Source: Candidatus Latescibacterota bacterium (GTDB lineage Bacteria; Latescibacterota; 4484-107). Taken from it: a DNA stretch of 64,000 bases. Made by a program: the position numbers and the translations under genes. Shown piece after piece: positions 28,467 through 58,782 of this stretch. The stretch is taken from assembly GCA_043804415.1 (NCBI GenBank), contig JAZDJA010000297.1, forward strand, positions 3,911 through 67,910, written 5' to 3'. Every line of letters starts with the position of its first letter. The first letter of the stretch is position 1. The notes beneath the pieces are model-generated. The model worked only from the letters and a program-made list of their open reading frames with translations. It did no database searches and was not told the DNA's origin.

Positions 28467-28559
28467 CAAATGTCTCTCCGTCCGACCACAATAATGCACG
28501 AAAACTCCCGGAGGTTTTTCAGAAGGCTTTCGGGAGAATCCGCAGTAAGAGCTTGGCTC

Positions 28560-37294: not shown

Positions 37295-39733
37295 TTATTC
37301 GTTGTCTTTTTCACCAAGCAATGCGAATGTCAGATCATCCCCTTTCTTGCTCACGCGCACGCTATCCCCCTTCCTAAATTTCCCCCCCAAAAGTTCCTCT
37401 GTCAAGGGATCCTCCACCAGCTTCTGGATAGCGCGCCGAAGGGGTCTGGCTCCGTAGGCGGGATCGTACCCCTTATCTGCGATAAGGCTTCTGGCACCGG
37501 GCGTCAGATTGAGGGTCAGGTCCCTTCCTGCCGCACGTTTGTTGACTTCCTCGAGCAGCATATCAATGATGCGGAGGATTTCTTTTCGGCCCAATGAATG
37601 GAACACCATGGATTCATCCACGCGATTTAAGAATTCCGGATTGAAGGTCCGTTTCATCTCAGCCAGAATCTTTTCCTTCATCCGCTCGTGGTTCCATTTC
37701 TCTCCCGTCTTCTGAAAGCCCAGCGAACGGCCTTCCCCGATGTCCCGGGTCCCCAGGTTTGAGGTCATAATGATCACCGTATTTCGAAAATCCACGTGCC
37801 GTCCGAAGCTGTCTGTGAGGCGGCCGTCATCCAAGACCTGAAGCAGGAGATTGAAGAAATCCGGATGGGCTTTCTCTATCTCGTCGAAGAGCACCACCGA
37901 ATACGGTTTTCTGCGCACCTTCTCGGTTAATTGCCCGCCCTCATCGTATCCCACGTATCCCGGGGGAGCACCGATCAGCCGGGACAGAGAGAATCGTTCC
38001 GAGTACTCCGACATATCGATCTGGATCAACGCGTCCCTGTCCTCGAAGAGATACTCGGCCAGCACGCGTGCCAACTCCGTCTTGCCCACGCCCGTTGGGC
38101 CCAGAAAGACGAACGAACCGATGGGACGCTTTGGGTCCTTGAGTCCCGATCGGCTTCTTCGAATGGCCTTGGAGATCGCGGTGATTGCCTCGTCCTGTCC
38201 GACGATCCGCTTCTTTAGGGCCTCCTCCATCTGAAGCAGTTTCTCCGATTCCTCCCGTGCCAGGCGAAATACCGGAATGCCCGTCATAGAGGAAATGACC
38301 TCCGCGATATCCTCCTCGGTTACCTCCACCTGATAGTTGGATACCTCTTCTTCCCACTCCCTGTTCCTCTGTCCCAGCTTTTCTTTCAAACGGCGCCCTT
38401 CGTCGCGCAGCGCGATGGCCTCCTCGAAATGCTGCTCTTCGATGACCGTCCCCTTCTTCTTCTCAATATCCTCAATCGCCTGCTCCAGATTCCGGATGTC
38501 CACCGGCACGACCACTTTCGACAAATGCACGCGGGATCCTGCCTCGTCAATCACATCTATGGCCTTGTCAGGCAGATATCGATTGCTGATGTACCGATCC
38601 GACAATGTGGCCGCTGCCACGACCGCCTCGTCCATGTACTTCGCATGATGGTGTTCCTCGTACCTTTTCCGAAGCCCCTTCAAGATCTCGATACTGTCCG
38701 CCACCGAGGGCGGGTCCACCATGATGGTCTGAAAACGTCGCTCCAGAGCGCCGTCCTTTTCGATGTGTCTCCGATACTCGTCCAATGTGGTGGCACCGAT
38801 GCACTGGAGTTCCCCTCGCGCCAACGCCGGCTTGAACATATTGGATGCATCAAGGGTGCCTTCCGCGCTGCCCGCGCCCACAATCGTATGCATTTCGTCG
38901 ATGAAGAGGAATACGTCCTTATTCTGCTGGAGCTCGTTGATGATCCCCTTGATGCGCTCTTCGAATTGCCCGCGGTACTTCGTGCCGGATACGACGCCGC
39001 CCAGATCCAGGGCGACCAGACGCTTTCCGTTCAGTATCTGAGGCACCTTCTTGTCCACGATTCGCTGAGCCAGCCCTTCCACAATCGCGGTCTTGCCCAC
39101 GCCGGGCTCTCCGATTAGCACCGGATTGTTCTTCTTGCGCCGACTTAAAACCTGGGACACGCGCTCGATCTCCCTTTCCCGGCCGATGGTCGGATCGATC
39201 TTTCCTTCCCGAGCCAACTGGGTCAGATCTCTGCTGAAGTGATCCAAGAACGGGGTTTTGCTCTTGGGCTGCTCTTTATTGTCGACGCTCTTTCCCGAAA
39301 GGAGGGCCATCACCACATCCTGCACGGCATCAAAGGTGACCCCATAGGTCGTCAAGATCCGAGCAGCTACGCCCTCTTTATCCTTGATCAGCGCCAGGAG
39401 GAGGTGTTCCGTGCCCGTATAATCCACCTTCATCTGCCGGGACAGCTGAACCGAGATCTCGAGAATCTGTCGCGCACGCGGCGTAAGTGGCAGTTGCTGT
39501 TGCGCCAATGCCGTTCCCCCAGAGGTCTCCACCGCATCCTCAATAGCCTGACGAATGGCATCCAAATCCAACCCCAAATGAATGAGCGCAGCAACCGCCA
39601 CACCCTCTCCTTCCTGAATCAATCCCAAAAGGAAGTGTTCGCTGCCAATATAGTTGTGGTTCAGTCGATCTGCCTCCTCGCGGGCCAATTGCAGCACTTT
39701 CTGCATTCTGGCTGTAAACACTGGAGCACTCAT
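37295..39733 (-). CDS. clpC: ATP-dependent Clp protease ATP-binding subunit ClpC
   Basis: The ATG at 39733 has a GGAGG ribosome-binding site. The product has two Clp_N repeats, two AAA+ modules ([16 protein letters not shown]) and a UVR-like linker. Confidence 0.93.
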
Positions 39734-40217
39734 AATTTCCTCCAAAATAGGCGGAGATGTTGTCGCAGAGATCATCGTGCGGTCGCAGAGCCGCAACGCA
39801 AGAACGCAATCACCCAGCGGGCAAATTGGGAAGCACGGATTGGGTCTGAAAAACGAGTCTTCGTGGGTTGGGTGGGCAGAGCGTGTGAGAAGAGATCGCG
39901 CTCAATGGTTCCAGTTTCTCGTGCCATGCCGCTGGCCGTTTCCGGTTGAATGCGCATCAGATTCTTGATCTTCTTGGGAAGGAGCACGGTATATGGAAGG
40001 ACTCCGAACGAAACGTAGCCCCTCTTGTGCGGTACAGAAGACTCGGGAAGGGAGGGCGGGCCTTGCCCACAGTCCAGCGCGCGGAAAAGGGGGTACGGCC
40101 TTCGACGCCGGCACGCATCTCAGGGATCGGATGAGGAAAGGGTGCTCCGATGTCCTCGCGGGAGTTCCCACCCCATTCGATGCCGCTTCCTCCCTGCCTT
40201 TGCACGCCCCGTCTCTT

Positions 40218-41294
40218 CTAGGGCTTTTCCGGTGCAGACGGATCGGCCCGGTGAAACCGTTTCCGCACCAGATTGGCTCGCAGGGCATCGCGCCTGGCCG
40301 GATCCAGGTTTTTGCCGGCTCGTTGTTGGAGATGGGAGGGTTGGGTGGTTACCATCAGTTCGTTTAAGATCCGAATGTCCGGTCTGGAGATTATGCCCAT
40401 CGAGACTCCCAGTCGCACGGCGGAAGCAAGGTTCATGAACTCCTGGCTCGTAAGCAGTCTCGCATTTTCCAGGATGCCAAACGCCCTCCAGATTTTGTCC
40501 TCGATCTGGAAACGGGCTTCTCTCATAAGTTTTGCCCGGGCAAGTTCTTCGACGCGAATAAGTTCCAGGCTGACTTTTTTCAGATGGTCGATCGTTTCCT
40601 GCTCGTCTTGGCCGAGTGTTCTCTGGTTGGATATTTGGAACAGGTTTCCGATGATCTCAGAGCCCTCTCCATAGAATCCCCGAGCCACCAAACCCAACTG
40701 AGAAATCCCCCGAAGTGCGGCGTCCTTTTGGCGGGTCAGAACGAGTCCAGGAAGATGAATGAGGACAGAGGCTCTCAATCCCGTTCCCACATTGGTCGGA
40801 CAGGTCGTCAGATAACCCCACTTTTCCGAATAGGCATAGGCCAATGAGTCCGAGAGTTCGTCGTCCATCCGATTCACCAGCTCCCAGGCCTTTTGTGGCG
40901 AGAAGCCCGATTGAATGGTCTGAATCCTCAGATGGTCCTCCTCGTTGATCATGACGCTGCACCGTTCCCGATGCGCCACCAAAACCCCCCGATGCCCGCG
41001 GACCTTTGCCAGTGCGGGGCTGATCAGATGGCGTTCCACCAGAACCTGGCGGGGAATCTTCGGGAGATGGGAGGTGTCAAAAAAAGAAGCCTCTCTCAAG
41101 ATCTCAGAGCGCACCCCGGCCGCCAATACCTCTGCCGAAATCTCCGAAAGCTGGTTCTCCTTCGCCCGATGAACGAACGGAAACGCCCCAAGGTTCCGGG
41201 CCAACCGCACGCGAGTGCTCACTACCAAGTCGGCATGCGAGCCCGTTCCGTCAAGCCATGCGGCCATGTGATGGGAGAGATCTTCCAAGGTCAT
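40218..41294 (-). CDS. mcsB: Protein-arginine kinase McsB (phosphagen-kinase fold)
   Basis: The product begins MTLEDLSHHMAAWL... and contains the active-site motif CPTNVGTGLRASVLIHLPGL (CPxNxGTxxR). Confidence 0.88.
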   Translation of the reverse strand: MTLEDLSHHMAAWLDGTGSHADLVVSTRVRLARNLGAFPFVHRAKENQLSEISAEVLAAGVRSEILREASFFDTSHLPKIPRQVLVERHLISPALAKVRGHRGVLVAHRERCSVMINEEDHLRIQTIQSGFSPQKAWELVNRMDDELSDSLAYAYSEKWGYLTTCPTNVGTGLRASVLIHLPGLVLTRQKDAALRGISQLGLVARGFYGEGSEIIGNLFQISNQRTLGQDEQETIDHLKKVSLELIRVEELARAKLMREARFQIEDKIWRAFGILENARLLTSQEFMNLASAVRLGVSMGIISRPDIRILNELMVTTQPSHLQQRAGKNLDPARRDALRANLVRKRFHRADPSAPEKP

Positions 41295-41340
41295 CGGTGA
41301 CCTTCCGAATCTGGGCAAAGGGAGGACGAGGGATCAGGTC

Positions 41341-41871
41341 TCAGGGCGTATCGTCTCTCAGGATCTCTGATGCCATCGGTTCTTGAGCCATGGCTGCAAT
41401 CCGGTCCCGAAGGCGAGCCGCTTCCTCGAATTCCTCCTGCTGAATAGCCTGTTTGAGTGCGACCCGCATGGTGCCTATTTTCTGGCGCCGCTTCGCCGCA
41501 AAAAGTTGTGCGGCCGGAACTTTTCCGGTGTGGGAGGTGTTCCCGTGAACGTTCTTGAGTATCTGCTCCAGCGGCTCTGCAAAAGCCCGGTAGCACGCTT
41601 CGCATCCCAGTCGTCCCTTTGCCTTAAACTCCGCATAGGACCACCCGCACGAGGGGCACGTTCCTGCGGGCTCTTCCCCCTCCTCGTTTTGGCTCGCGGC
41701 GAGTGCTCCCGCTATCAGACTGTTCACCGAACTCTGGATGGTTTCCAGGGAAATGGTCAGTCCCCGTTTCTCCGCACACGTTTCACAAAGGTGCAGTGCC
41801 GTTTTCTCATTCTTGACAATCTGGGTGAACAGCACCACGGCCGGCTTTTTCCCGCACATTTCACAGGTCAT
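41341..41871 (-). CDS. mcsA: Protein-arginine kinase activator McsA
   Basis: The product has two CxxC...CxxC zinc-finger pairs (CEMCGKKP...CETC, CPSCGW...CEAC) and a UVR motif (QEEFEEAARLRDRI). It lies directly upstream of mcsB-clpC. Confidence 0.85.
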   Translation of the reverse strand: MTCEMCGKKPAVVLFTQIVKNEKTALHLCETCAEKRGLTISLETIQSSVNSLIAGALAASQNEEGEEPAGTCPSCGWSYAEFKAKGRLGCEACYRAFAEPLEQILKNVHGNTSHTGKVPAAQLFAAKRRQKIGTMRVALKQAIQQEEFEEAARLRDRIAAMAQEPMASEILRDDTP

Positions 41872-46160: not shown

Positions 46161-47259
46161 TTAGGCCTCTTTCCCACTTAGATACGCGTAGATGAAGGCA
46201 TCAAGTTTCCCATCCATCACGGCTTCCACGTTGCTCGTTTCCTCGCCGGTGCGATGATCTTTCACCATGTTGTAGGGATGGAACACATACGAGCGGATCT
46301 GGTTGCCCCACTCGATGCGCTTTTTCGTGTCTTCTACCACATCCTGTCGTTTCTGCTTTTCGTCTTCGTGGAACTGATACAGTCGTGCGCGCAGAATCTT
46401 CATCGCGCTCATTCGATTCTTGTGCTGCGACCGCTCGTTCTGGCACTGCACCACAATCCCGGTCGGAAGGTGCGTGATGCGCACGGCCGAATCCGTCTTG
46501 TTTACATGCTGTCCGCCGGCCCCGCTGGAGCGATAGGTATCCACGCGAAGCTCCGAATCGTTGATCGCCATCTCGACAGCCTCTTCCACTTCGGGATACA
46601 CGAACACCGATGCAAAGGAGGTGTGTCGCCGATTCTGCGAGTCAAACGGCGAAAGACGCACGAGGCGATGGACCCCCGCCTCCGCCTTCAGATAGCCATA
46701 CGCATACTTCCCGGTCACCTCCACTGTTACGCTCTTGATCCCGGCTTCATCTCCCGGCTGAAGGTCCATCAGTTCCCGTTCAAATCCCCTGCGCTCGATC
46801 CACCGCATATACATTCGGAGGAGCATCTGCGCCCAATCCGCAGACTCCGTTCCGCCTGCTCCTGGATGGATGGTCAGGATGGCGTTTTTTTCATCGTGTT
46901 TGTCGGAGAGCATATTCTGAAACTCCAACTCCGCAAGGCCCTTTTCCAGGGCGTCCGCCTCCGTCCTTACCTCGGCCATGGCCTCGCCATCTTCCTCCTC
47001 CGCCGCAAGTTCAAAGAGTATCATCAGGTCTTCCCGCTGATTCTCCAGTCCCTGCCATGCTTCCACCCAGTGCTTATGCCCATTGACCTCGCTGATGGTT
47101 GCCTGTGCGCTCTCCCGATCCTCCCAGAAACCCGGAGCGCTCATCGGCAGTTCCAGACGAGCAATCTCCTCCTTCCGCCTTTCGACGTCAAAGGTACCTC
47201 CGCAGTTTGGCCAACCGTTCCCCGAAATCCACCAACGTCAATTCCAATTCATCCGCCAT
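46161..47259 (-). CDS. prfB: Peptide chain release factor 2, with a programmed +1 ribosomal frameshift
   Basis: Frame 0 starts at the ATG at 47259 and encodes MADELELTLVDFGERLAKLRRYL, then the in-frame TGA at 47190..47188 within CTT TGA C. A +1 shift gives DVERRKEEIARLELPMSAPGFWEDRE... continuing to 46161. The product is 365 aa in total and carries the SPF and GGQ motif regions. An SD-like GGAGG lies 3 nt upstream of CTT. Confidence 0.9.
47187..47199 (-). other. The prfB +1 frameshift site (AGG-TAC-CTT-TGA-C)
   Basis: This is the canonical autoregulatory RF2 recoding cassette: an internal SD-like element, a CUU slippery codon and a UGA-C poor stop context. Confidence 0.85.
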
Positions 47260-47323: not shown

Positions 47324-47776
47324 CTACTTCCTGAAATGCAGATGGCTTGCTTTGGCCATCCGGGGTATTTTGAATACCATTTCTCCGCGAATTTCCCCGC
47401 CGGGCTCCAGCGGAAATTCCGATCCGGGCGCCATAAACAGCGGAGAGGACGCCAAGGCCAGATGCTTGGTCTGGGTTGCGTCCACCAGCTGAAAATTGCG
47501 CTGTCCCAGTATCAGCTTCTTCACTTCCTCCTTGGACCCTATCGTGACGTAGAGCCGCACGTACTTCCATCCCTCCTCCACGGGCTCGCCGTCCAACTCG
47601 TGTTCCTCACGAAGTTTTTCCACGCTCACCGCAATGTCTGTGGTCTTGCGGGTATTCCTGGACTGGTCGAATACGCCGCCGAGGGTTTTCGTCAGGTCCA
47701 TAGAACGCAGGGAGAGCATGATCCAAAGAAGTACCAACAAAACGCCTGAATACACGACGATGCGAATCGTCCTCAT
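47324..47776 (-). CDS. Hypothetical membrane-anchored protein
   Basis: ORF 47324..47827. One N-terminal transmembrane segment (IRIVVYSGVLLVLLWIMLSL) is followed by a beta-rich domain of about 110 aa. I recognised no family; DUF4352-like is only a guess. Confidence 0.45.
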   Translation of the reverse strand: MRTIRIVVYSGVLLVLLWIMLSLRSMDLTKTLGGVFDQSRNTRKTTDIAVSVEKLREEHELDGEPVEEGWKYVRLYVTIGSKEEVKKLILGQRNFQLVDATQTKHLALASSPLFMAPGSEFPLEPGGEIRGEMVFKIPRMAKASHLHFRK

Positions 47777-48961
47777 GATCCTTTTTCTACGCTGGCGCCT
47801 TCGATCGTCCTCGAGCGTTCTCAACATCCGATCGCACCTCCGTGTGCTTGGTTGTCTGCCGATAGGGGACCTGATTCGTCATTTTGCCGAACCCTTCCAT
47901 GGGTTCCATAGCCCCGGCCTGATTAGGGGAGAATCCGCTTTCTCCAGGGACTTTTCATAAAGGATAGACAATCGAATATAACCCATAATCGCTTTCCGGT
48001 CAAGCGAAAAGTGCGTCTCCAGAGGACAAGGGGGCGGCATCGACTCTTCTGTCGAGCGAACCAACGGAAAAAGGATTTGCATTCTCGCGCTTATGTGTGT
48101 ATCTTAGAGAGTAGTCTCGAGTATTCCAAGGCCTGGGGACCCTCTTTTATCCAGGCGGATCAGCAGGGAAAATGTGCAGTTATACGACATTTGTTCAATC
48201 CCCAAAGATTCCCGGCTCCCCCAGGTGCATGCGAGTGTGCCTCGCGGCCCAAATCTTGGGGCCATCGCATTTTGGAACGCGCTGGTTTTCGCGGATGTCG
48301 TTCTGTAAATCCCGCACTGCGGTAGAAGCCCCAGCCGGCAGCGCCCTATGGATAGTGAGTAAGATGCCCCTTTTTCGGCCATCCGTGCAGGGGTGGCAGG
48401 GCGCAGCATCCCGCAATACCCGTGTTGAGAGAGCGGGAAGGCATGCCTTATGTGCGACATGATGGCCGATCCCGGGCCGGTCGCGCTGTTGTCTTCTGAT
48501 CCCGAGTCGGATGCTTTCCGCTCCGTATTCCTGCGGGTCGAGACATTCCCGAGCACCCACCACTCCGCAAGGGTACGCAGCCGTTTCGCTCCATGACCGT
48601 GTCGAACATCCGGTCCCCGATGGCGAAGAGCGGGAGCACTTGCGGGCGTGTGAGGTCGTTTCCGATTTTCCTGCCCAGCCCAATGGGAACGAGGACGACT
48701 GACAAAGAGGAGGATTTCGGCTCGGCTCGAATGCTGCGCGAATCCGGTTTGCGTTTCTCGCCAAGGTGCGCAGGCCGATCTCGGAGGTGGCGAATCTCAA
48801 AGAGAACCCAGGTCCCAGACAGCTAGCATGGAGCGCATTTTCCTGTATATACAAGGTCGGGATAAACCGATCACTCCATACCGGGGGGATAAGAAAGGCT
48901 CCCTTCAAAATGCGGCGGCGGCGACATGCTGTTGGCGTGTTTTGTAGATTGGGTTTTGAGT

Positions 48962-49642
48962 ATGGCCACACAATCGCAGTCGGTGGGAGGGGGAATCGGT
49001 CAGCAGATCGTGCTGCCGTTGAGCAAGGCCGTGGAGATCAGTGCAAAGAGTCTGAAGATTCGCCTGGGGCGCTCGTTGATTACGATGAGTGGGATTATCC
49101 TGGCGATAGCCTTTCTGATGTCCATCTGGACGTCCAGCGCGATCGTGGATGGTCTGCGGGCCGCAGACGATGCAAACATCAATCTGTTGCTCCAGCGGAA
49201 GGGGATCGAGACCGGTTCGGATGCCATGGGTGAGGAGCGCGCGAAGAATACCTGGCTGGTGGTGCTGTCGCTTATGGTGTGTGTGGTGGGCATTGTCAAT
49301 TCGATGCTGATGTCGGTGACGGAGCGCTTCCGCGAGATCGGGACGATGAAGTGTCTGGGGGCCTTGGATTCCTTTATAATTAAGTTATTTGTGCTGGAGT
49401 CCTCGTTTCAAGGCACAGTGGGGACCGTGATCGGGGTGATCATCGGTTTGCTGCTGACGATTCTGATGTCCATGGGAAGCTACGGAACGTTGATCTTTGA
49501 TCATTTCCCCGGGGTGGATATCCTCAAGTGGGGTGCGCTTTCCATTGTGATTGGCTCGTTTCTTTCGGTCATTGGAGCGATCTATCCCTCCTATACCGCA
49601 GCCCGGATGGAACCGGTGGATGCGATGCGCGTGGATCAATAG
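48962..49642 (+). CDS. ABC transporter permease, short FtsX-family (4 transmembrane segments)
   Basis: From the ATG at 48962 the product is MATQSQSVGG.... The FtsX/MacB C-terminal signature TERFREIGTMKCLGA is present and the C-terminus is ...AARMEPVDAMRVDQ. It is followed by a cognate ATPase. Confidence 0.7.
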   Translation: MATQSQSVGGGIGQQIVLPLSKAVEISAKSLKIRLGRSLITMSGIILAIAFLMSIWTSSAIVDGLRAADDANINLLLQRKGIETGSDAMGEERAKNTWLVVLSLMVCVVGIVNSMLMSVTERFREIGTMKCLGALDSFIIKLFVLESSFQGTVGTVIGVIIGLLLTILMSMGSYGTLIFDHFPGVDILKWGALSIVIGSFLSVIGAIYPSYTAARMEPVDAMRVDQ

Positions 49643-49724
49643 TCATCAGTCATTTGTCATTCGTCATTAGGGAGTGCGGTGGGGCACTGAAGGTCTGATG
49701 ACCCATGACCAAAAGGAGTGGGGC

Positions 49725-50462
49725 ATGGCGGAACAAACGGTTGTGCGGACGCAGGATGTGAAGAAGATGTACCGGATGGGGGAGATGGAACTGGAGGCCC
49801 TTAAAGGGGTTAGTGTGGAGATTTTCGCGGGGGAGTATATCTCGATCATGGGGCCCTCGGGTTCTGGGAAGACGACGTTGTTCAACATGGTGGGCGGGTT
49901 GGATAAGCCGTCGTCCGGGAAAGTGTATATTGACGAGGTGGATGTGGCGCAGTTGGATGCGTATGAGCTGGCGTGGCTGCGGTGTCGAAAAATCGGATAT
50001 ATCTTTCAGACGTTCAATCTCATTCCGGTGATGACCGCACTGGAGAATGTGACCCTTCCGATGGTATTTGCCGGGCTGACGAGCGACGAGGCGCGGGACA
50101 AAGGGGCCGATCTGCTCGATCGCGTGGGGCTCGGGGAGCGGATCATGCATAAGCCATACGAGCTCTCCGGGGGACAGCAGCAACGGGTGGCTGTGGCCCG
50201 GGCGATGGCCAATGATCCGGCCATTCTCTTGGCTGATGAGCCCACAGGGAATCTGGATCTGGCTACGGGAACGGAGATTATCAATCTGCTGAGAGAGGTG
50301 AACGAGGTGTCCGGGGTGACGGTGATCTCGGCAACACACGATCACAAGATGCTCAACGTGTCCGATCGGGTGGTATGGATTCGGGATGGCAGGCTGGATC
50401 GAATCATCAAGCGCGAAGATCTCAGAATTGAAGTAGGGACGATAGACGGGAAGACGGACTAG
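49725..50462 (+). CDS. ABC transporter ATP-binding protein (FtsE/LolD/MacB-like)
   Basis: The ATG at 49725 has an AAAGGAGTGG ribosome-binding site. Walker A (GPSGSGKTT), the signature (LSGGQQQRVAVARA) and Walker B (ILLADEPTGNLD) are present. Confidence 0.85.
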   Translation: MAEQTVVRTQDVKKMYRMGEMELEALKGVSVEIFAGEYISIMGPSGSGKTTLFNMVGGLDKPSSGKVYIDEVDVAQLDAYELAWLRCRKIGYIFQTFNLIPVMTALENVTLPMVFAGLTSDEARDKGADLLDRVGLGERIMHKPYELSGGQQQRVAVARAMANDPAILLADEPTGNLDLATGTEIINLLREVNEVSGVTVISATHDHKMLNVSDRVVWIRDGRLDRIIKREDLRIEVGTIDGKTD

Positions 50463-50616
50463 ATCATTCTCCATGCAAGTCACCCAGTGAAAGACAATGA
50501 GGATTCGTGGACAAAGGGCTATATTCCCTATTCGCTGTCTTCTTTTGAGTTCCATGGTGAGGCATCTTTCCCGCCAAACGGTGACAACCATGAAGTTTCC
50601 TTGCACTCGATGTGCC

Positions 50617-50648
50617 AAGCCCAACAGAACTCCTTGTTGGGCTTTCTT
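50617..50648 (+). terminator. Rho-independent terminator after the ABC transporter pair
   Basis: The sequence is AAGCCCAACA-gaactcc-TGTTGGGCTT followed by TTCTTG. That is a perfect 10 bp GC-rich stem with a U-rich tail. Confidence 0.6.
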
Positions 50649-50830
50649 GCGGCAGAATAGAGAATCTCGCCAGCCTCATGCGAAAGCCATGTAGCGGGCG
50701 AAGGTCTTCTGAAATTGTGCGAATAGAACACCAGCAATACTCCTGTGATCCCTGGTCCATCCGATGTCAGATGGCCAAGACCATTCCTGTTCTATGGTGT
50801 CCTATTCCATCTCTTTGTCTCAAGGATAAA

Positions 50831-51520
50831 ATGGAACTGAAAATCAAAGATATTGTCGATCTATTGCAGGTGTCTGAAAAAACGGTATACCGCTGGATCA
50901 AGGAGAAGAAGATTCCCTGTTACCGCATTCATCATCATTACCACTTCAATCGTGCAGAAGTAAATGAGTGGATCATGAGCAATGGGATCGGATTATCGAC
51001 CCAATTGCTGAATCTACCCCTGACTGGAAGGCCGACCCATCTTACTGACCTGCTCCTGCATGGCGGAGTCTACACGGGTATTACCGGAAATACGATTCGG
51101 GATGTTCTGCACAACGCCATCGAATCCATTGATACCCCTCAGGATATGGATAAGGAAGACATTATTTCAGCATTGCTGAATCGTGAAGAACTGATGTCCA
51201 CGGCCATCGGAAACGGTATAGCCATTCCACATCCCCGTAAGCCGTTGATCACCAATGTCAAGGATGCCAGTGTGTCTATCTGTTTCTTAGCAGAAGGGGT
51301 GAATTTTGGTGCACTGGACGGACATCCGGTACATACGCTATTCCTGCTGTTAACGTGCAGCCCCAGGAGACACCTGGAAGTATTATCCAAAATATCTTAT
51401 CTGTGCCAGATGGATGATTTTCGGTCTATGCTTGAACGTCGTGCTTCAGCACAGGAAATAAGTGATTTTGTTCAGGGGAAAGAACGGTCATGGCAGCAGA
51501 AGGAGTTGGCTGAGCGATGA
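50831..51520 (+). CDS. Fusion regulator: N-terminal excisionase/MerR-like HTH plus C-terminal PTS EIIA (PtsN/EIIA-Ntr-like) domain
   Basis: The product begins MELKIKDIVDLLQVSEKTVYRWIKEKKIPCYRIHHHYHFNRAEVNEWI (an HTH_17-like module). The C-terminus contains ...STAIGNGIAIPHPRKPL... (EIIA-2 phospho-histidine loop). Its stop overlaps the next gene start (ATGA at 51517-51520). Confidence 0.75.
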   Translation: MELKIKDIVDLLQVSEKTVYRWIKEKKIPCYRIHHHYHFNRAEVNEWIMSNGIGLSTQLLNLPLTGRPTHLTDLLLHGGVYTGITGNTIRDVLHNAIESIDTPQDMDKEDIISALLNREELMSTAIGNGIAIPHPRKPLITNVKDASVSICFLAEGVNFGALDGHPVHTLFLLLTCSPRRHLEVLSKISYLCQMDDFRSMLERRASAQEISDFVQGKERSWQQKELAER

Positions 51521-53493
51521 ATCTACTACTTATTGGGGTTGCCTTATTTTTCGCAGCTGGATTGGTAGCCATCCCTTTGCCACAAAAGAGAAAGGGAATA
51601 GCGTATGTCAGCTTCGCTGCATCAGCGCAGATTTTCATTCTGCCGTTGGTGATAAAGGCATTGTTGGGAAGCCCGACACTGAATTTGTCCGTTCATTTTT
51701 CCGGACCCATTGGAGATGTAACTCTGCTACTGGATCCACTTGCTGCTTTCTTCATGTTTTTCATCTCGCTCGGCGGATTGCTTGCTGGTATCTATTCGCT
51801 CGGCTATATGAAAATGTATCAAGATAGTGATCGTCATTCTCTTTCCACTTATTACTTTTTCATGGGCTTGTTGGTTGTTGCCATGCTTCTCGTTGTCATC
51901 GTACAGAATGCCCTGTTCTTTTTGATCGTCTGGGAAATCATGTCACTGGCATCCTTCTTTCTGGTCAGTTTTGAACACCAGAAAGAAGAAGTGCGAAAAG
52001 CAGGACTCTATTATCTGATCGCCATGCAAATTGGCGCAGCAGCGCTGCTTGTTGCTTTCGGCTGGAGCACTGTATTGACTGGCAGCATGGATTTTGGTGC
52101 ACTATCCACACTGAGTCCGGCAGCAGCCACGTTTGTTTTCATTTTGTTCTTTATCGGTTTTGGCACTAAAGCTGGTTTTGTTCCCCTGCATACCTGGCTC
52201 CCGCTGGCACATCCGGCGGCGCCGACTGCTGTGTCTGCCATGATGTCCGGCGTGATGATCAAAACTGGAATTTACGGCATTTTGCGGATCATTTTGATCA
52301 TCGGTGTTCCCAGCCCTTGGCTCGCGTATCTGGTTTTTGGAATTGCGCTGCTTTCCGGTCTTCTGGGAGTCATACACGCCATAGCTCAACACGATTTGAA
52401 GAAGCTACTTGCCTACCATAGCATCGAAAATATCGGCATTATTGGTTTGGGGATTGGCGTGGGCATGCTGGGAATAATAAGTGGGCGAGCACTCATTGCG
52501 GTCGCAGGTTTCCTGGGCGCGCTGTTGCATGTATTCAATCATTTTACGTTCAAAAGTTTGCTCTTCTATGGAGCCGGAATAATCTACTCAAAAACGCACA
52601 CGCGAAATATCGATCAATTGGGCGGATTGGTTCGCGTTCTGCCTTACACGGCCGCGCTTTTTCTGATTGGCTCACTGGCCATCAGCGGGCTTCCACTCCT
52701 AAGCGGTTTTGTCAGCGAATTTGCCGTCTATTTCGGAATGGCTCAGAGCCTGTCTGAGCATAATATATATCTTAATGTGACAGCTGGAATCGGCCTTGCT
52801 GGACTGGCTCTTATCGGTACCATGGCTGCATTATGTTTCACCAAAGTGTTCAGCATATGCTTTCTTGGCAATCCACGAACGAGTTGGCAGGGCACCCCTT
52901 CCGAAGCTTCATCGACCATGCTGGCGCCCATGATTGTACTGGCGAGTTTCATAGTTTTCATCGGGTTGTTCACCCCGCTGATCCTTCCATTTCTCTCCGG
53001 GGTGGTGAAGCAATTCTGTCATGAATCTTTCTATCCCGCATGGAATGAAATTCTGGATATCTTTCTGGAGATCAATGGTGCGCTATTGATTTTCGGGGGA
53101 CTCATTCTATTCTTTATAGGATTGCGCTGGATGTTGTTACGTAACAAAACGGTCGCTCTATTCAAAACATGGGATTGTGGTTACCAGGCTCAAAGCAGCC
53201 GCATTCAATATACTGCCAGCTCATTTGCCTGCTCCTTTCTGAGGTTGGCGGCCAACATAGTGCCGCAGAAGAAGCATATCGTTCGTCCGCAGGGGTTGTT
53301 TCCGACACAGGCGCTCTATGAGAGCCATAGCGACGACCTGATTGCGCGCTGGATGATTCGACCGCTTGTCGGCCTGTTACACTATTTTCTCGGGCTGCTA
53401 TCGTGGATTCAGAGCGGACATACCCAACAATACATTCTTTATGGTCTGGTCTTTCTGGTTATGCTCGTCATCTGGGTTATCGGAGTCCGCTAA
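51517..53493 (+). CDS. NuoL/MnhA-type antiporter-like membrane subunit (HyfB/HycC-like)
   Basis: The 658 aa polytopic product contains the motif HTWLPLAHPAAPTAVSAMMSGVMIKTGIYG, shared by complex I NuoL/M/N and hydrogenase-3/4 membrane subunits. Confidence 0.8.
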   Translation: MNLLLIGVALFFAAGLVAIPLPQKRKGIAYVSFAASAQIFILPLVIKALLGSPTLNLSVHFSGPIGDVTLLLDPLAAFFMFFISLGGLLAGIYSLGYMKMYQDSDRHSLSTYYFFMGLLVVAMLLVVIVQNALFFLIVWEIMSLASFFLVSFEHQKEEVRKAGLYYLIAMQIGAAALLVAFGWSTVLTGSMDFGALSTLSPAAATFVFILFFIGFGTKAGFVPLHTWLPLAHPAAPTAVSAMMSGVMIKTGIYGILRIILIIGVPSPWLAYLVFGIALLSGLLGVIHAIAQHDLKKLLAYHSIENIGIIGLGIGVGMLGIISGRALIAVAGFLGALLHVFNHFTFKSLLFYGAGIIYSKTHTRNIDQLGGLVRVLPYTAALFLIGSLAISGLPLLSGFVSEFAVYFGMAQSLSEHNIYLNVTAGIGLAGLALIGTMAALCFTKVFSICFLGNPRTSWQGTPSEASSTMLAPMIVLASFIVFIGLFTPLILPFLSGVVKQFCHESFYPAWNEILDIFLEINGALLIFGGLILFFIGLRWMLLRNKTVALFKTWDCGYQAQSSRIQYTASSFACSFLRLAANIVPQKKHIVRPQGLFPTQALYESHSDDLIARWMIRPLVGLLHYFLGLLSWIQSGHTQQYILYGLVFLVMLVIWVIGVR

Positions 53494-54410
53494 TGCAAAA
53501 AGGAATCTGTCTACTCATCATCTTGATGGTCCCGTTTGTCTTTACAGGCCTGATAAACCGGGTAAAAGCGCTTTGGGCGGGACGCAGAGGCGCTCCATTG
53601 TGGCAGCCATTCTACGATTTCAGGAAACTGCTGAGAAAAGGGGACGTGCTCAGCAAAACAACCTCATTTGTGTTTCGCCTCAGTCCGTCACTGAATATTG
53701 CAGCCGTTATTTTTGTCGCCCTGATCATCCCATTGCCACAGCAAAAAGCCATAATCAGCTTTCCCGCTGATTTCGTACTGTTCGCTTACACGCTGGGACT
53801 GGCAAGATTCATGCTAGTCCTTTCTGCGATGGATACAGGCAGTCCGTTTGAAGGCATGGGAGCTGCCCGTGAAGTTACCTTCTCCAACATCGTTGAGCCT
53901 GCTTTCTTCGTGCTGATCGGTTCTCTGGCGCTGATTACCGGACAGACTTCATTTGAATCTATTTTTGCGCAACTGAATACCAGCGCCCGCTATACGGTGC
54001 TTGTGAAATCGCTCTGCCTGGCGTCCCTGTTTGTCATGCTGCTAACCGAAGGATCGCGGTCGCCGGTGGACGATCCCAACACCCATCTGGAACTGACCAT
54101 GATTCACGAAGTGATGATCCTCGATTATTCGGGTCCTGATCTGGCATTTATGCAGTATGCCTCCGGTCTGAAAATGGTGGTCATCACCGCCCTGATGGCC
54201 AATCTGTTCGCACCCTCAGGAGTCGGAGCGCTATATGGTATCATGATTTTTCTGATCGTGCTGGCTGGGGTCGCGGTGGCTATAGGATGGGTCGAATCTT
54301 TTTTCGCCAGGCTGAGAATGTCGCATGTTCCCCAGTTTATTTTTATGATGGTGGCCTTGTCGGTAACTCTCTTTGCCGTAGTAATATTTTTTCTGTACGG
54401 AGGGAATTAA
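53493..54410 (+). CDS. NuoH/HycD-like membrane subunit (formate hydrogenlyase subunit 4-like)
   Basis: From the ATG at 53493 (a TAATG overlap with the upstream gene) the product contains RRGAPLWQPFYDFRKLL and LDTGSPFEGMGAAREV, matching the HycD/NuoH signature regions. It is 305 aa. Confidence 0.8.
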   Translation: MQKGICLLIILMVPFVFTGLINRVKALWAGRRGAPLWQPFYDFRKLLRKGDVLSKTTSFVFRLSPSLNIAAVIFVALIIPLPQQKAIISFPADFVLFAYTLGLARFMLVLSAMDTGSPFEGMGAAREVTFSNIVEPAFFVLIGSLALITGQTSFESIFAQLNTSARYTVLVKSLCLASLFVMLLTEGSRSPVDDPNTHLELTMIHEVMILDYSGPDLAFMQYASGLKMVVITALMANLFAPSGVGALYGIMIFLIVLAGVAVAIGWVESFFARLRMSHVPQFIFMMVALSVTLFAVVIFFLYGGN

Positions 54411-55045
54411 TGGCTGACGTTGTGATCATTCTGCTTGGTACCGGTATGTTTTATGTTTTCGCAGCCAGCCGTATTGAAGCCTTCATTAAGACACTGGCAT
54501 TACAGGGGATGCTACTATTTCTGCTTGTCATTATCGATCTTCGCGAAATCAACTGGCTCAACATCGCTTTTTTGGTTTTGGAAACGCTGGTCATCAAATC
54601 AACGGTGATTCCCTTGTTTCTGTTGAATGCGATTCGTCGTAACGAGATCGACCGTGAAGTGGAGCCGTATGTATCGCAGTTCTATTCGCTGATGATCGGC
54701 AGTATCATTTTTATTTTCGGATTTGTCGTCGCTTTCTGGGCTGCTCGCGTGGAACCAGGCATACATCCGCTCTATTTTGGTGTGTCTATAGCGCTGATCA
54801 TTGCCAGTCTGTTTCTTATTGTTACCCGCAAACGCATTATCACCCATATTCTCTGCTTCATGATGCTGGAGAACGGGATCTTTCTGCTATCCCTATCCGT
54901 TGCCCATGAGATGCCTATGCTGGTTAATCTGGGTGTATTGCTTGACCTCTTTGTAGGCCTATTCCTGTTGGTGATCTTTTTCAACAAAATACAATTGATG
55001 TTTGATGGCAGCCATATCGATGTATTGACTCAATTGAAGGATTGA
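54410..55045 (+). CDS. HyfE-like small polytopic membrane subunit
   Basis: The ATG at 54410 overlaps the upstream stop (TAATG). The product is about 211 aa with six transmembrane segments. Its position and size match hydrogenase-4 component E. Confidence 0.6.
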   Translation: MADVVIILLGTGMFYVFAASRIEAFIKTLALQGMLLFLLVIIDLREINWLNIAFLVLETLVIKSTVIPLFLLNAIRRNEIDREVEPYVSQFYSLMIGSIIFIFGFVVAFWAARVEPGIHPLYFGVSIALIIASLFLIVTRKRIITHILCFMMLENGIFLLSLSVAHEMPMLVNLGVLLDLFVGLFLLVIFFNKIQLMFDGSHIDVLTQLKD

Positions 55046-55047
55046 AC

Positions 55048-56478
55048 ATGTTCATTCTGATGCTATTTGCACCCGTTGTTTTGGCTGCGCTCGTCATGTT
55101 CTGGCAGAACCGGTTTGTGATTCGTCTTTCACTTCTGGCCGCCGCCGCTCTCTACCTTCTTGCGGCTTTCGGCTGGGGGTTCGACTTCATTCACAAGGAG
55201 GTGGATGGTTGGCTGTCCAATTATTTTCAGATTGATGCCATTGGTCTTTTCTTTCTGACCATTATGGCGCTGGTATTCGCCGGAACGGCCATTTACAGCC
55301 TGTTCTTCTTTAAGGAGACCGGTACAGGTGTTCCTCAGGAAGCGCGCTACGTAGCTTCTATGCTCCTATTTGTGGATGCTATGGCGGGGGTCATATTAGC
55401 CAGCCATCTGGGGCTATTGTGGGTTTTTGTGGAAGCGACAACCCTGACCAGCGCCGTGCTGATCTATTTTGAAAAGAAAAAATCATCCTTGGAAGCGGCC
55501 TGGAAATACGTGTTTATCTGCTCAGTGGGTATAGCCATGGCCTTTGTTGGGATCATCATTTTGTCAATGGGCAGCAGAAGCATCGGCACACTCTTTTTCA
55601 CCGATCTGTATCAACGTGCCTACGAAATCAATCCATTTTGGCTTAAAATGGCATTTGCCTTTATTCTGGTCGGCTTTGGCACCAAAGTCGGTATAGCGCC
55701 GATTCATGCCTGGCTGCCAGACGCCCATTCCGAGGCTCCTTCCCCAGTATCCGCTTTGCTTTCAGGCACTCTGCTGAACACCGCTTTTCTGGGTTTAATA
55801 CGCGTGCAGGAGATCATGATTCAGGCTAGACTCGATTCCTTTTCAAATCTGCTATTGCTCATTACCGGATTTCTATCATTATTGATCAGCGCTGTATTTA
55901 TGCTGGGTACCGTCAATTACAAGCGGATGCTGGCCTATTCCTCCATTGAGAACATGGGGATTCTGTTTATCGGCATTGCCATGGGTAAGACGGGCATCTA
56001 TGCCGCCATGCTCCACACGGTGGCGCACTCGCTCTCCAAGTCATCCCTGTTTCTCACATCGGGGAATATTCTGCACCTGTATGGAAGCAAAAAAATTTCT
56101 GATGTGAAAGGGCTGCTGCATCGGGAACCGCTTACTGGTTGGCTCTGGATCGTATCTTTGCTGGCGATTATCGGACTGCCACCGTTTCCATCATTTCTGA
56201 GTAAATTTCTATTGATCACAGCTTTTTTCGAAGCGGGTCAGGGCTGGTTGGCTGTTCCCTTCTTTCTGTTTGTCGCAGTGATTATCTATGGCATGGGGGG
56301 AGCAATATTCCGCATGTCATTCGGTGATCTTCCGCCAGGAACCTGCCTTTCCCCAAAACTGGGCCTGAGCGCCTACATCCCCCAGGTGGTCTTTTTGTTG
56401 GGGTTGGCAGCGATTGGAATCTATATACCGGAACGGGCCCTGGCATTTATTCAGAGCGCCGCCGGATTCTTGAAGTAG
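55048..56478 (+). CDS. NuoN/M-type antiporter-like membrane subunit (HyfF/HyfD-like)
   Basis: The product contains the motif IHAWLPDAHSEAPSPVSALLSGTLLNTAFLGLIR. It is about 476 aa. Its start is adjacent to the upstream TGA. Confidence 0.8.
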   Translation: MFILMLFAPVVLAALVMFWQNRFVIRLSLLAAAALYLLAAFGWGFDFIHKEVDGWLSNYFQIDAIGLFFLTIMALVFAGTAIYSLFFFKETGTGVPQEARYVASMLLFVDAMAGVILASHLGLLWVFVEATTLTSAVLIYFEKKKSSLEAAWKYVFICSVGIAMAFVGIIILSMGSRSIGTLFFTDLYQRAYEINPFWLKMAFAFILVGFGTKVGIAPIHAWLPDAHSEAPSPVSALLSGTLLNTAFLGLIRVQEIMIQARLDSFSNLLLLITGFLSLLISAVFMLGTVNYKRMLAYSSIENMGILFIGIAMGKTGIYAAMLHTVAHSLSKSSLFLTSGNILHLYGSKKISDVKGLLHREPLTGWLWIVSLLAIIGLPPFPSFLSKFLLITAFFEAGQGWLAVPFFLFVAVIIYGMGGAIFRMSFGDLPPGTCLSPKLGLSAYIPQVVFLLGLAAIGIYIPERALAFIQSAAGFLK

Positions 56479-56487
56479 AGGAATAAT

Positions 56488-57978
56488 GTGGTGAATTGGA
56501 CTGAAACAAATAATTTGCAGGCCGTGGATCTGGCGGACATCCCACAACTGCCGATTGATTCATTCCGTTCTCAAATTTTGGAAAGTCTTGCTGCCAAACG
56601 GCGATGTGTACAATTCTTCGGGGATGAGGAGGGAGACAAGGTAATCGTCTACGCAGTGCTGGCTGATCACCATCTTTCCCGACTGTATGTCGCTGCCACT
56701 GTTTTTGACAACGAAAAGAAATATCCCTCGCTTACGCCTCAGGCGCCGTCCATGCACCTGTTCGAACGGGAATTGTTTGAGCAGGTCGAAATCGAACCAC
56801 TAGGACATCCCTGGCTAAAGCCGGTGCGCAAGGGAATTGCCGGTATCCGTGCCACTGAAACGCCCTATCCGTTTTTCCAGATGGATGGTGAGGAGACCCA
56901 TGAGGTGGGTGTGGGACCCATCCACGCCGGCGTCATCGAGCCCGGACATTTTCGCTTTTCCTGTCACGGTGAGGAAGTCTATCATCTTGAAATTGAGCTG
57001 GGATTTGGACACCGCGGCGTGGAGGATCTATTCATTCGCCACCGCGAACGACCGAGCTGTTTGCTTCACTTAGCCGAATCTATTGCCGGTGATACGGTCA
57101 TTGGTCATGGCGGCGCCTTTGTCAGAGCGATGGAATCGTTAAGCGGGATTTCGGTTTCCCGTCGGGCTATGATCGTTCGTACTGTTGCCCTGGAATTGGA
57201 GCGTGTCGGCGTTCATCTCGGCGATCTGTCTGCATTGGCGGGTGACGTGGCGTATCTCACCGGCAATGCGATCTTCGGCGCGCTGCGCACCCGTGCGATC
57301 AATACCAGTATGGCTGTCTGTGGAAGCCGTTTCGGGCGTGGTTTGCTCGCCATCGGTGGAATTCGTTTTGATATTTCCAATGAGCTGAGAAAGACCATTG
57401 AAACCACGCTGTCGGAAGTTGAGGACCAGGTGGAATTGGCTGGCGCAGTGATGTTTTCATCTGCATCAACCATGGAGCGATTTGAGAAAACAGGCGTCGT
57501 TTCCGAATCGACGGCGATCGAAATCGGGATGGTTGGGCCAGCCGCCCGCGCCAGTGGTCGCGCAATGGACGTGCGTGCAGATTTTCCGTTTGGCCCGTAT
57601 AACCAGTTTCCGGTTCATCCAATCACTTACCATACGGGGGATGTGTTCGCCAGGGCCTATATCCGCTATGTCGAGATCAAACAGTCCCTCCGAATCATAA
57701 GAGAGCAGTTGGCCAACCTCAGTGGTCAAACGCTGAAATCTCAGAAGGCCGCCTTGCAGCCCAATCGTCTGGTCGTTTCATTGGCTGAAGGCTGGAGAGG
57801 GGAAATTGCCCATGTCGCAATTACGAACGCTGATGGCAAATTGAGACGCTACAAGATCAAGGACCCCTCATTCCATAACTGGCTGGCCTTGGCGCTTGCG
57901 GTACGCAATGAAGGAATATCTGATTTCCCATTGTGCAACAAAAGCTTCAATCTGTCCTATTGTGGGTTTGACCTATAA
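56488..57978 (+). CDS. Fused NuoC-NuoD-like 'large subunit' (HycE-like) without the canonical [NiFe]-site cysteines
   Basis: The product contains VGVGPIHAGVIEPGHFRF...GFGHRGVEDL. Where group-4 hydrogenases carry E-R-x-C-G-x-C-x-x-x-H, the sequence here is ESIAGDTVIGH. The C-terminus ends DFPLCNKSFNLSYCGFDL and lacks a DPCxxC motif. The start is GTG at 56488 or 56491, after a GAGGAA ribosome-binding site. Confidence 0.8.
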   Translation: MVNWTETNNLQAVDLADIPQLPIDSFRSQILESLAAKRRCVQFFGDEEGDKVIVYAVLADHHLSRLYVAATVFDNEKKYPSLTPQAPSMHLFERELFEQVEIEPLGHPWLKPVRKGIAGIRATETPYPFFQMDGEETHEVGVGPIHAGVIEPGHFRFSCHGEEVYHLEIELGFGHRGVEDLFIRHRERPSCLLHLAESIAGDTVIGHGGAFVRAMESLSGISVSRRAMIVRTVALELERVGVHLGDLSALAGDVAYLTGNAIFGALRTRAINTSMAVCGSRFGRGLLAIGGIRFDISNELRKTIETTLSEVEDQVELAGAVMFSSASTMERFEKTGVVSESTAIEIGMVGPAARASGRAMDVRADFPFGPYNQFPVHPITYHTGDVFARAYIRYVEIKQSLRIIREQLANLSGQTLKSQKAALQPNRLVVSLAEGWRGEIAHVAITNADGKLRRYKIKDPSFHNWLALALAVRNEGISDFPLCNKSFNLSYCGFDL

Positions 57979-57996
57979 ACCTATCAGGAACTCGCC

Positions 57997-58782
57997 ATGT
58001 TTGAGTTGCTCAGAGCTCGCAAAAACCACGGCTTTCAGGCTATACGTGATATTGGTAGTGCCCAGTTGCCATCCCCATTTCGTGGTTTCCCGCTGCTGGA
58101 TGAAAAATGCTGCACAAAGGATTGCGGCGCCTGTGCCGAAGTTTGCCCAACTCATGCCATCCAGCTTAAGCCGCTGCAAATAGATTTGGGTCGCTGTATT
58201 TTCTGCGGCGATTGTGTTCACGAATGTCTCTCCGGCGCCATCGAGTTCTCCTCCCAATATCGCTTGGGCAATATGAGCCGCGATGGGCTGGTTATTCCCT
58301 CAGCGCTGACTCCCGAGCACTACCAAGAAGAAGCCATTGTCGCACGGAAGGAAATCAGGCGCCTCTTCGGCCACTCGCTCAAATTGCGTCAGGTTTCTGC
58401 TGGCGGCTGCAACGGGTGCGAGATGGAACTCGCGGCTGCCGGAAATGTTAATTTTGACATGGGGCGATTCGGTTTTGATTTTGTCGCTTCTCCTCGTCAC
58501 GCAGACGGCCTCGTGATCACGGGCCCGATTTCGAGCAATATGGCTCCGGCGCTTGTGGATGCCTACAATAGTGTCAGTCAACCACGACTGGTCATTGTGG
58601 TTGGTGCCTGCGCAATCAGTGGTGGCGTGTTTGTCGAATCTGATCAACTCCATCGCAGCTTTCTGGACAATGTAGCGATCGATCTCTTTATTCCCGGATG
58701 TCCGACACACCCATTGACCTTTATTAATGCCTTACTCGATCTTCTGGATAGAAAGAAGAACAGAACAGCCAGAACCTCCTGA
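57997..58782 (+). CDS. Fused 2x[4Fe-4S] ferredoxin (HycF/NuoI-like) plus NuoB/HycG-like small subunit
   Basis: The N-terminus carries CCTKDCGACAEVCP...CIFCGDCVHEC, which is two CxxCxxCxxxC(P) ferredoxin motifs. The C-terminus carries SAGGCNGCEMEL...VVGACAISGG...IPGCPTHP (the NuoB cluster-N2-type cysteine pattern). Confidence 0.8.
   Translation: MFELLRARKNHGFQAIRDIGSAQLPSPFRGFPLLDEKCCTKDCGACAEVCPTHAIQLKPLQIDLGRCIFCGDCVHECLSGAIEFSSQYRLGNMSRDGLVIPSALTPEHYQEEAIVARKEIRRLFGHSLKLRQVSAGGCNGCEMELAAAGNVNFDMGRFGFDFVASPRHADGLVITGPISSNMAPALVDAYNSVSQPRLVIVVGACAISGGVFVESDQLHRSFLDNVAIDLFIPGCPTHPLTFINALLDLLDRKKNRTARTS

Follow-up and report, generated by a model that had tools for sequence, protein, structure and literature searches.

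A 1.1-kb spacer at a gene-strand switch in a Latescibacterota contig likely holds promoters and a decayed Pro_CA_2 gene

The spacer between two divergent operons

What occupies a long, apparently empty spacer at which gene direction and guanine-plus-cytosine (GC) skew both reverse? We addressed this question in a 64-kb stretch of contig JAZDJA010000297.1 (assembly GCA_043804415.1) from a Candidatus Latescibacterota bacterium, referred to below as the window. The spacer (47828-48961; 1,134 nucleotides [nt]) runs from the ATG at 47827 of a minus-strand DUF4352-like gene to the ATG at 48962 of a plus-strand FtsX-like gene. An earlier interpretation of this DNA, made from the letters and open reading frames (ORFs) without database searches (hereafter the sequence-only reading), had proposed a candidate replication origin and/or an unannotated non-coding RNA (ncRNA) at this position. 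We consider it likely that the spacer represents composite intergenic sequence flanked by two divergent operons and is not a dedicated functional element: promoter sequence is conserved in relatives, the center is homologous to a known gene family and carries frameshifts, and origin and RNA signatures are absent.

Both boundaries of the spacer are supported by related proteins. At the left start (47827), 164-amino-acid (aa) homologues align across all 167 aa of the DUF4352-like protein, and a conserved GGAGGTG lies upstream; the right start (48962) is that of a 226-aa NCBI protein, P0007, and is conserved in locus L007. The ORFs within these boundaries have no match in Pfam or PHROG. The sequence-only reading was correct in describing a spacer of ~1.1 kb without an intact gene. 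The center is GC-rich, with a GC content of 0.62 at 48359-48702 compared to ~0.56 for the window.

From left to right, the spacer would comprise, for the minus-strand operon, a Shine-Dalgarno sequence, a leader of ~140 nt and a canonical sigma-70 promoter conserved in relatives; ~75 nt away, another conserved block, which could be a divergent promoter; 253 nt without recognizable ancestry; a plus-strand Pro_CA_2 relic of ~340 nt, presumably killed by at least two frameshifts and the loss of both Cys-containing motifs; and finally the conserved promoter and leader region of the FtsX-like/ABC operon. The features of the spacer and its immediate flanks are as follows.

47324..47827, minus: gene for a DUF4352-like small membrane protein, 167 aa, first of an operon that continues with prfB and lysS
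47828..47968, minus: 5' leader, ~140 nt, with the Shine-Dalgarno sequence GGAGGTG (plus-strand CACCTCC at 47835-47841)
47975..48003, minus: sigma-70-type promoter TTGACC-17 nt-TATATT, predicted to drive the DUF4352-like/prfB/lysS operon
48077..48105, plus: conserved block TTGCAT-17 nt-TATCTT, possible divergent promoter
48106..48358: unassigned stretch, 253 nt, GC content 0.56, where synteny with relatives breaks
48359..48702, plus: Pro_CA_2 (PF20393, "putative carbonic anhydrase") pseudogene, a frameshifted relic
48359-48454, 48456-48566 and 48571-48699, plus: pieces of the pseudogene in three frames, with a stop at 48700-48702
48703..48814: unassigned stretch, 112 nt, between the pseudogene stop and the FtsX-proximal region, no homology found
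48815..48961, plus: FtsX-proximal conserved region (~150 nt), presumably promoter and leader of the FtsX-like gene
48962..49642, plus: gene for a short FtsX-like ABC permease, 226 aa, PF02687, first of the plus-strand operon
49674-50462, plus: gene for an ABC ATPase, directly after the FtsX-like gene in the operon

A frameshifted Pro_CA_2 relic in the center

The segment at 48359-48702 is a pseudogene and not a member gene of the Pro_CA_2 family. When its three frames were merged, the translation matched PF20393 over profile positions 11-97 of 125 (36.7 bits, E = 5.7e-9), and a two-frame version reached 30.9 bits. The gathering score of 30 bits was reached by the window relic only after frame correction, and the single raw frames tested against PF20393 (63, 48 and 46 aa) gave no match. 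Homology was also evident from a tblastn search with the copy found in locus L088, which yielded two colinear matches that differ in frame, one at 48456-48575 (57.5% over 40 aa, E = 4.7e-11), the other at 48386-48454 (E = 0.04); these were the best two matches in the whole window. At the nucleotide level, 48386-48565 is 65.6% identical over 180 nt to loci L087 and L088, where the segment occupies the same place upstream of FtsX. Both loci had been found by scanning metagenomes for a conserved 20-mer upstream of FtsX. The GC contents at the three codon positions of the corrected frames (0.70/0.47/0.70) are gene-like, which explains the GC-rich center of the spacer.

Relative to the L088 copy, the window relic keeps the order of segments (CxDxR region, EPGP, SDPESD, HHS, HxDC region), and it departs from the family in that it is not intact, no single frame scores and the Cys motifs are altered. 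Specifically, the relic reads CRGGR in place of CMDGR and LHDR in place of HYDC, so that both Cys motifs are gone; by analogy with beta-carbonic anhydrases, the Cys/His motifs CxDxR and HxDC would bind metal. There is no in-frame start codon (the ATG at 48364 is out of frame), and there are at least two frameshifts, at ~48455 and 48567-48570.

The gene is also broken in relatives. The translation of L088 reads CMDGRVRLPVISYLRERLGVQHVDVITEPGP and then, in another frame, LSSHPESDASRSIFRRVKGSLNAHHSGGIAMVAHYDCA; its unedited frames match PF20393 consecutively but in different frames, at profile positions 5-45 (52.7 bits) and 48-82 (25.5 bits), and once joined they score 89.5 bits. L087 and L088 are independent metagenome contigs in which a 10-nt deletion relative to the window (at ~110-115 and ~518, respectively) has shifted the frame of the Pro_CA_2 copy; past the HYDC motif, the copy diverges. 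A further locus, L100, whose FtsX is 90% identical, begins with the 3' end of a Pro_CA_2 relic. The gene thus seems to be decaying independently, through different lesions, in at least two lineages. A literature search on PF20393 returned nothing useful.

The sequence-only reading had left room for a decayed gene, which is borne out for 48359-48702, and had named a frameshifted remnant of a known gene as what would speak against its proposal; such a remnant makes up ~30% of the spacer. We also compared the ten longest stop-free frames of the spacer, concatenated into one query of 1,407 aa, with 5.8 billion proteins, and nothing scored. This negative covers long frames only: the query omitted the short plus-strand frames 48359-48496 and 48429-48593, which hold the first two pseudogene segments, and included the third segment, which went undetected. 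Two other candidate remnants were rejected. A minus-strand frame at 48451-48822 (LFAIGDRMFDTV), which from its GC periodicity had resembled a HAD-hydrolase-like remnant, matched nothing in Pfam or PHROGs, and the periodicity at 48.5-48.8 kb arises because this frame is antisense to the Pro_CA_2 relic. A remnant of DUF3795, the upstream neighbor in L007 and L088, was sought in the spacer by tblastn without significant result (best E = 5.9).

Conserved promoter sequence on the minus-strand side

The minus-strand promoter matches the sigma-70 consensus at 10 of 12 positions, with 17 nt between the hexamers (criterion, 16-18). A block of ~45 nt around it is nearly invariant in L004, L005 and L006, short contigs reached via homologues of the DUF4352-like protein, though their proteins are only ~60% identical; over 53-85 nt, the promoter region is 80-85% identical to these relatives at the nucleotide level. 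In L005 and L006, the gene opposite this promoter is a Bro-N gene, ~370 nt away. The conserved pattern had no match in the metagenome contigs scanned. The promoter contains the first AT-rich patch of the sequence-only reading, and from the position of its -10 hexamer, transcription of the minus-strand operon would start near 47968.

The DUF4352-like protein has five full-length homologues (57-61% identity), one of which carries PF11611, and the order DUF4352-like gene, prfB, lysS is also found in L003, L004 and L005. A search of genome contigs with the 167-aa protein returned no relatives. Conservation of the leader between promoter and start codon is patchy in comparison with L004, L005 and L006. 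Its consensus fold is weak (-11 kcal/mol) and was drawn from three distinct sequences only, and we make no structural claim for it. A weak hairpin within 47828-47968, in which CCCCTAT pairs with the GGAGGTG Shine-Dalgarno region, is possible on the few sequences at hand (three relatives).

The next gene of this operon, prfB (47259-46161, minus), has a classical programmed +1 frameshift, with the site at 47193-47187. Its ATG at 47259 opens a frame of 23 codons that ends in CTT TGA C, and an internal GGAGG lies 3 nt upstream. The 327-aa ORF listed for this gene is therefore only the post-shift part of RF2.

On the other side of the promoter, the block at 48077-48105 may be a divergent plus-strand promoter. 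L004 matches the segment 48068-48105 at 84% identity over 38 nt, with TTGCAT-17-TATTTT likewise placed back to back, and its contig ends ~17 nt beyond the block. A promoter consensus scan of the spacer did not list it. The spacer thus resembles ordinary divergent sigma-70 promoter regions in its canonical TTGACC-17-TATATT with a downstream Shine-Dalgarno sequence, both conserved in relatives, and in having a second conserved block in the opposite orientation ~75 nt away. It differs from them in its length of ~1.1 kb, much longer than such regions typically need, and the decayed gene and unassigned sequence explain most of this excess.

A variable stretch upstream of the FtsX-like operon

The FtsX-like protein is identical to P0007, which comes from a 74,753-bp contig of a metagenome-assembled genome (MAG) of Candidatus Latescibacterota; it is one of two proteins of the window that are 100% identical to NCBI entries from this contig. 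In a scan with this protein, the FtsX/ABC pair was conserved in 80 loci; prfB, lysS and the DUF4352-like gene were upstream of FtsX in none of the other FtsX loci. The region proximal to FtsX is conserved in L007, L087, L088, L090, L091 and L100, whose FtsX proteins are 88-90% identical, and has two cores, GGGGAnAAGAAAGGCTCCCTTCAAAA (~48885-48917) and GTTTTGTAGATnGGGTTT just before the ATG. The relatives carry an insert of 54-75 nt between the two cores that the window does not have. The GGGGAnAAGAAAGGCTCCCTTCAAAA core, ~30 nt long, precedes the FtsX-like gene with hardly any variation in all close relatives (48885-48917 in the window, 7984-8016 in L007, 382-414 in L087, 781-805 in L090 and 129-158 in L100) and may be an operator or promoter element.

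Beyond this region, the relatives diverge from the window and from each other. The closest relative, L007 (FtsX 89% identical), shares only the last ~150 nt ahead of the start codon; upstream of these, it has a DUF3795 gene, four native-GC genes, and a methyltransferase together with restriction-type genes, where GC content falls to 0.31-0.36 at 3-5 kb. These genes all lie on the plus strand with positive skew over at least 8 kb, and none of them occurs in the window. L087 and L088 (FtsX 89% identical) have DUF3795, then the frameshifted Pro_CA_2 segment, then FtsX. L090 (FtsX 88%) has an unrelated 84-aa gene upstream of FtsX, and L096 (FtsX 75%) has a 2-hydroxyacid dehydrogenase 78 nt upstream. 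Since upstream content differs even among close relatives, the stretch ahead of the FtsX operon is variable and may be a local hotspot where genes are gained and lost. We infer that gene decay in this variable stretch produced both the unusual 1.1-kb length of the spacer and its GC-rich center. The variable upstream DNA was compared at L007 3191-7691, L090 401-655 and L088 (reverse complement) 1-350.

Two pieces of the spacer carry no assignment. For 48106-48358, none of the 100 fetched loci gave a nucleotide match, there was no match in Pfam or PHROG, and the stop-free frames of at least 66 aa matched nothing in the concatenated protein search. The other piece is 48703-48814.

Gene orientation and GC skew

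To map gene orientation, all long ORFs of the window were scanned against Pfam, which gave 42 Pfam-annotated genes. The minus strand carries all 30 of the Pfam-supported genes left of the spacer, plus the DUF4352-like gene, and the plus strand carries all 12 to the right. A codon-usage gene caller trained on the window placed 33 minus-strand and 0 plus-strand genes left of the spacer. Its only two minus-strand calls on the right overlap the Pfam-supported, plus-strand NuoB-like gene and were treated as false. The perfect strand switch described by the sequence-only reading is confirmed by both the Pfam map and the caller. The genes assigned by Pfam are, by block:

Left of the spacer, minus strand, block 1: pnp, ribF, truB, infB, nusA, rimP, proS
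Left of the spacer, minus strand, block 2: MFS transporter, acs, gpsA, plsY, MiaB-like enzyme
Left of the spacer, minus strand, block 3: rpsA, ispH, plsC, cmk, pseudouridine synthase, scpB
Left of the spacer, minus strand, block 4: lpxC-fabZ fusion, lpxD, skp, bamA, TamB-like protein
Left of the spacer, minus strand, block 5: clpC, mcsB, mcsA, lolD, lolC/E, lysS, prfB
Right of the spacer, plus strand, block 1: FtsX-like permease, its ABC ATPase, HTH/PTS-EIIA regulator
Right of the spacer, plus strand, block 2: complex-I/Mbh-like membrane module, dtd, hsp20, htrA, dnaK

GC skew is about -0.05 to -0.17 left of the spacer and +0.17 to +0.19 just right of it, a sign change in the origin-type direction. 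Within the 64 kb, the cumulative GC-skew minimum falls at ~47.9-48.6 kb, in the spacer; the inflection on which the earlier origin proposal would depend is present. In loci of relatives with genes on both strands, third-codon-position skew goes with the DNA strand, irrespective of how the genes are oriented: in the clade of L014, plus-strand genes have a skew of +0.3 and minus-strand genes -0.48, and L096 shows the same sign pattern. As skew follows the DNA strand in relatives, the flip at the spacer is not trivially due to gene direction and probably reflects a change of leading strand.

The loci L014, L015, L017, L024, L028, L032, L037, L041 and L044 form one Latescibacterota clade with very strong strand-based third-position skew. 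Within the same 20 kb, coding-strand skew is ~+0.3 in plus-strand genes and ~-0.48 in minus-strand genes, which suggests that mutation in the phylum has a strong asymmetry linked to replication.

Searches for origin and RNA signatures

We searched the spacer for initiator sites, repeats and unwinding elements. Across 47828-48961, there is no site within one mismatch of TTATCCACA or of TTWTNCACA. With two mismatches allowed, the spacer has 4 DnaA-box sites compared to 2.85 ± 1.65 per equal-sized window, and 31% of such windows have at least 4. The DnaA-box-like TTATCCAGG singled out by the sequence-only reading is indeed present at 48147-48155; it has two mismatches, and there is no enrichment of such sites. 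To allow for an unfamiliar motif, we looked for a recurring 9-mer or 12-mer of any sequence in the spacer, and none exceeded dinucleotide shuffles: the best 9-mer has 4 copies with one mismatch (shuffle mean 4.4) and 12 with two (12.7), and the best 12-mer has 3 copies with two mismatches (3.4). A repeat search of the spacer found only two-copy chance families.

The AT-rich patches reported earlier are real. The strongest, at 47952-47981 (30 nt, 23% GC), reaches a value shared by 0.05% of window positions. The patches coincide with promoter -10 regions, and 47952-47981 is the -10 and start region of the conserved minus-strand promoter; the spacer contains no tandem AT-rich 13-mers. Neither dnaA nor dnaN, whose location the sequence-only reading had proposed as a check, is among the 42 Pfam-annotated genes, and none of dnaA, dnaN, gyrB, recF, parAB, gidAB or rpmH/rnpA lies within -48 kb/+15 kb of the spacer (the 64-kb window). 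The switch position is likewise not conserved, as FtsX in L007 is preceded by plus-strand genes of positive skew over at least 8 kb. Boxes, motifs, linked genes and conservation are all negative, and the spacer itself therefore gives no support to the earlier origin proposal. A search of the literature for the replication origin of Latescibacteria returned nothing useful.

The ncRNA half of the earlier proposal fared no better, with no Rfam match and no excess folding energy. Nothing in the whole window reached an Rfam gathering score, and the best permissive matches had 17.5 and 15.8 bits (E = 3.3 and 4). Minimum-free-energy (MFE) z-scores for the two strands of 48100-48900 were +0.57 and +0.31, meaning that the region folds no more stably than its shuffles. 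ARAGORN found no transfer RNA (tRNA) or transfer-messenger RNA (tmRNA), in agreement with the sequence-only reading.

Weighing the alternatives

Several points weigh against a composite spacer of promoters and a decayed gene. The Pfam score of the relic is barely above gathering and depends on frame joins chosen via the L088 alignment. Its raw 55-aa frame had 0 matches among 1.84 billion representative proteins; this fragment is too short and weak to match alone. The candidate plus-strand promoter has just 7 of 12 consensus matches, and the contig of its sole supporting relative ends there. Some 365 nt of the spacer (48106-48358 and 48703-48814) are without assignment. Finally, the content of the spacer does not explain the origin-type switch of polarity and skew, which needs a separate cause, be it a real origin, a rearrangement specific to the lineage or a join introduced in assembly. 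An origin in the spacer, with initiator sites too divergent to recognize and replication running outward along the flanking genes, would fit a skew change that falls exactly at the spacer, the ~31 genes on the left and 13 on the right that all point away from it, the leading-strand change suggested by strand-based third-position skew in relatives, and the lack of any other sizeable non-coding DNA at the switch. We nevertheless regard it as improbable, because there is no array of initiator sites, no origin-linked gene nearby, and the position is a synteny break. The spacer is like a bacterial oriC in its skew change, divergent strand switch and long non-coding stretch, but differs in lacking a cluster of DnaA boxes (none within one mismatch, no excess at two) or any iterated motif, in a center that is GC-rich and a pseudogene, in the absence of dnaA, dnaN and other origin-linked genes from the window and in a location that is not conserved, as the switch is not upstream of FtsX in L007. 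Two further points speak against an origin: the AT-rich patches are -10 regions of promoters, conserved in relatives whose upstream neighbors differ, and in L005 and L006 the promoter faces the Bro-N gene ~370 nt off. That the spacer is an origin of an unconventional kind, without recognizable DnaA boxes or iterated motif, unlinked to dnaA/dnaN and placed in a strain-variable stretch where genes can be inserted and decay, is a similarly improbable proposition and, if anything, slightly more so. If true, an origin here would imply unusual initiator recognition in an uncultured phylum and would be of moderate interest.

The switch could also be a structural junction within 48106-48358, either the endpoint of a lineage-specific inversion or indel or a chimeric join in the MAG assembly, which would set segments of opposite replication orientation back to back. 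We hold this to be a possibility worth keeping, if an unlikely one. Homology on the left (L004) ends at ~48125 and homology on the right (L087, L088) begins at ~48386, which makes the first unassigned piece the synteny break, and the 253 nt between the two match nothing. In the closest species-level relative, the two flanks lie on different contigs, with L003 ending 32 nt upstream of the DUF4352-like gene; the contigs of L003 and L004 break near here, as expected at a strain-variable site. In L007, FtsX is preceded by 8 kb of different plus-strand genes, none of them in the window, and the other FtsX loci lack prfB, lysS and the DUF4352-like gene upstream of FtsX; both observations point the same way. 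However, an inversion would turn one flank, rich in essential genes, head-on to replication, yet both flanks show well-developed skew of the "correct" sign, and the contig breaks of relatives may be coincidence. A junction concerns the switch and not the sequence content and is compatible with a composite spacer. Much less plausible, in our estimation, is that the spacer encodes a large structured ncRNA or a long 5' leader of the FtsX operon starting from the 48077-48105 block. That block does point into the spacer, whose center is GC-rich and which holds a conserved 33-nt core upstream of FtsX in all close relatives; were the block active as a promoter, its transcripts would include the pseudogene as leader. 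Yet the Rfam matches are at chance level, the MFE z-scores are positive, the center is absent from L007 and L090 (FtsX 88-89% identical), and what is conserved of the center is protein-like, with colinear amino acid matches and gene-like codon-position GC. We give the least credence to a short spacer ORF as a real unannotated gene; examples would be the plus-strand ORFs at 48450-48596 and 48511-48702 and the minus-strand ORF at 48195-48971. The spacer does have open frames of 48-258 aa and a codon-like GC periodicity at 48.5-48.8 kb, but the Pro_CA_2 relic explains this periodicity, the two plus-strand ORFs represent successive parts of a single domain, each in its own frame and without the Cys motifs, the long frames match nothing in Pfam, PHROG or the protein database, and the NCBI annotation of the MAG has no protein for the ten longest frames, which were those searched.

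A composite of promoters and a decayed gene, the reading we prefer, would place the spacer among regions of an ordinary kind, and it matters little for new biology. It illustrates that fully ordinary content can underlie a long "empty" spacer where strand and skew switch and that polarity alone is insufficient ground for calling an origin in a MAG contig. For annotation, the MAG can gain a Pro_CA_2 pseudogene, and the stretch upstream of the FtsX/ABC operon is flagged as variable and island-accepting among close relatives.

Other features of the window

Downstream of the ABC ATPase, the stretch at ~50500-58000 has a GC content of 0.40-0.50 compared to ~0.56, and a GC skew near zero although all of its genes are on the plus strand. 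It encodes the HTH/PTS-EIIA regulator and the complex-I/Mbh-like module, with NuoL-, NuoH-, NuoM/N-, NuoCD- and NuoB-plus-4Fe-4S-like proteins, and looks horizontally acquired. A cluster of seven relaxed DnaA-box-like matches at 51.0-52.2 kb was rejected as an origin, since it lies inside Pfam-supported genes, in low-GC DNA and on the wrong side of the switch; the matches are probably a compositional effect.

On the minus strand, a single 482-aa ORF at 27051-28499 combines LpxC (residues 16-241) with a FabA/FabZ-like dehydratase (residues 345-469), making it an lpxC-fabZ fusion. At 37295-41871, also on the minus strand, mcsB (ATP:guanido phosphotransferase) and an mcsA-like UVR-motif gene come before a clpC-like AAA+ gene, an arginine-kinase/ClpC gene arrangement best known from Firmicutes.

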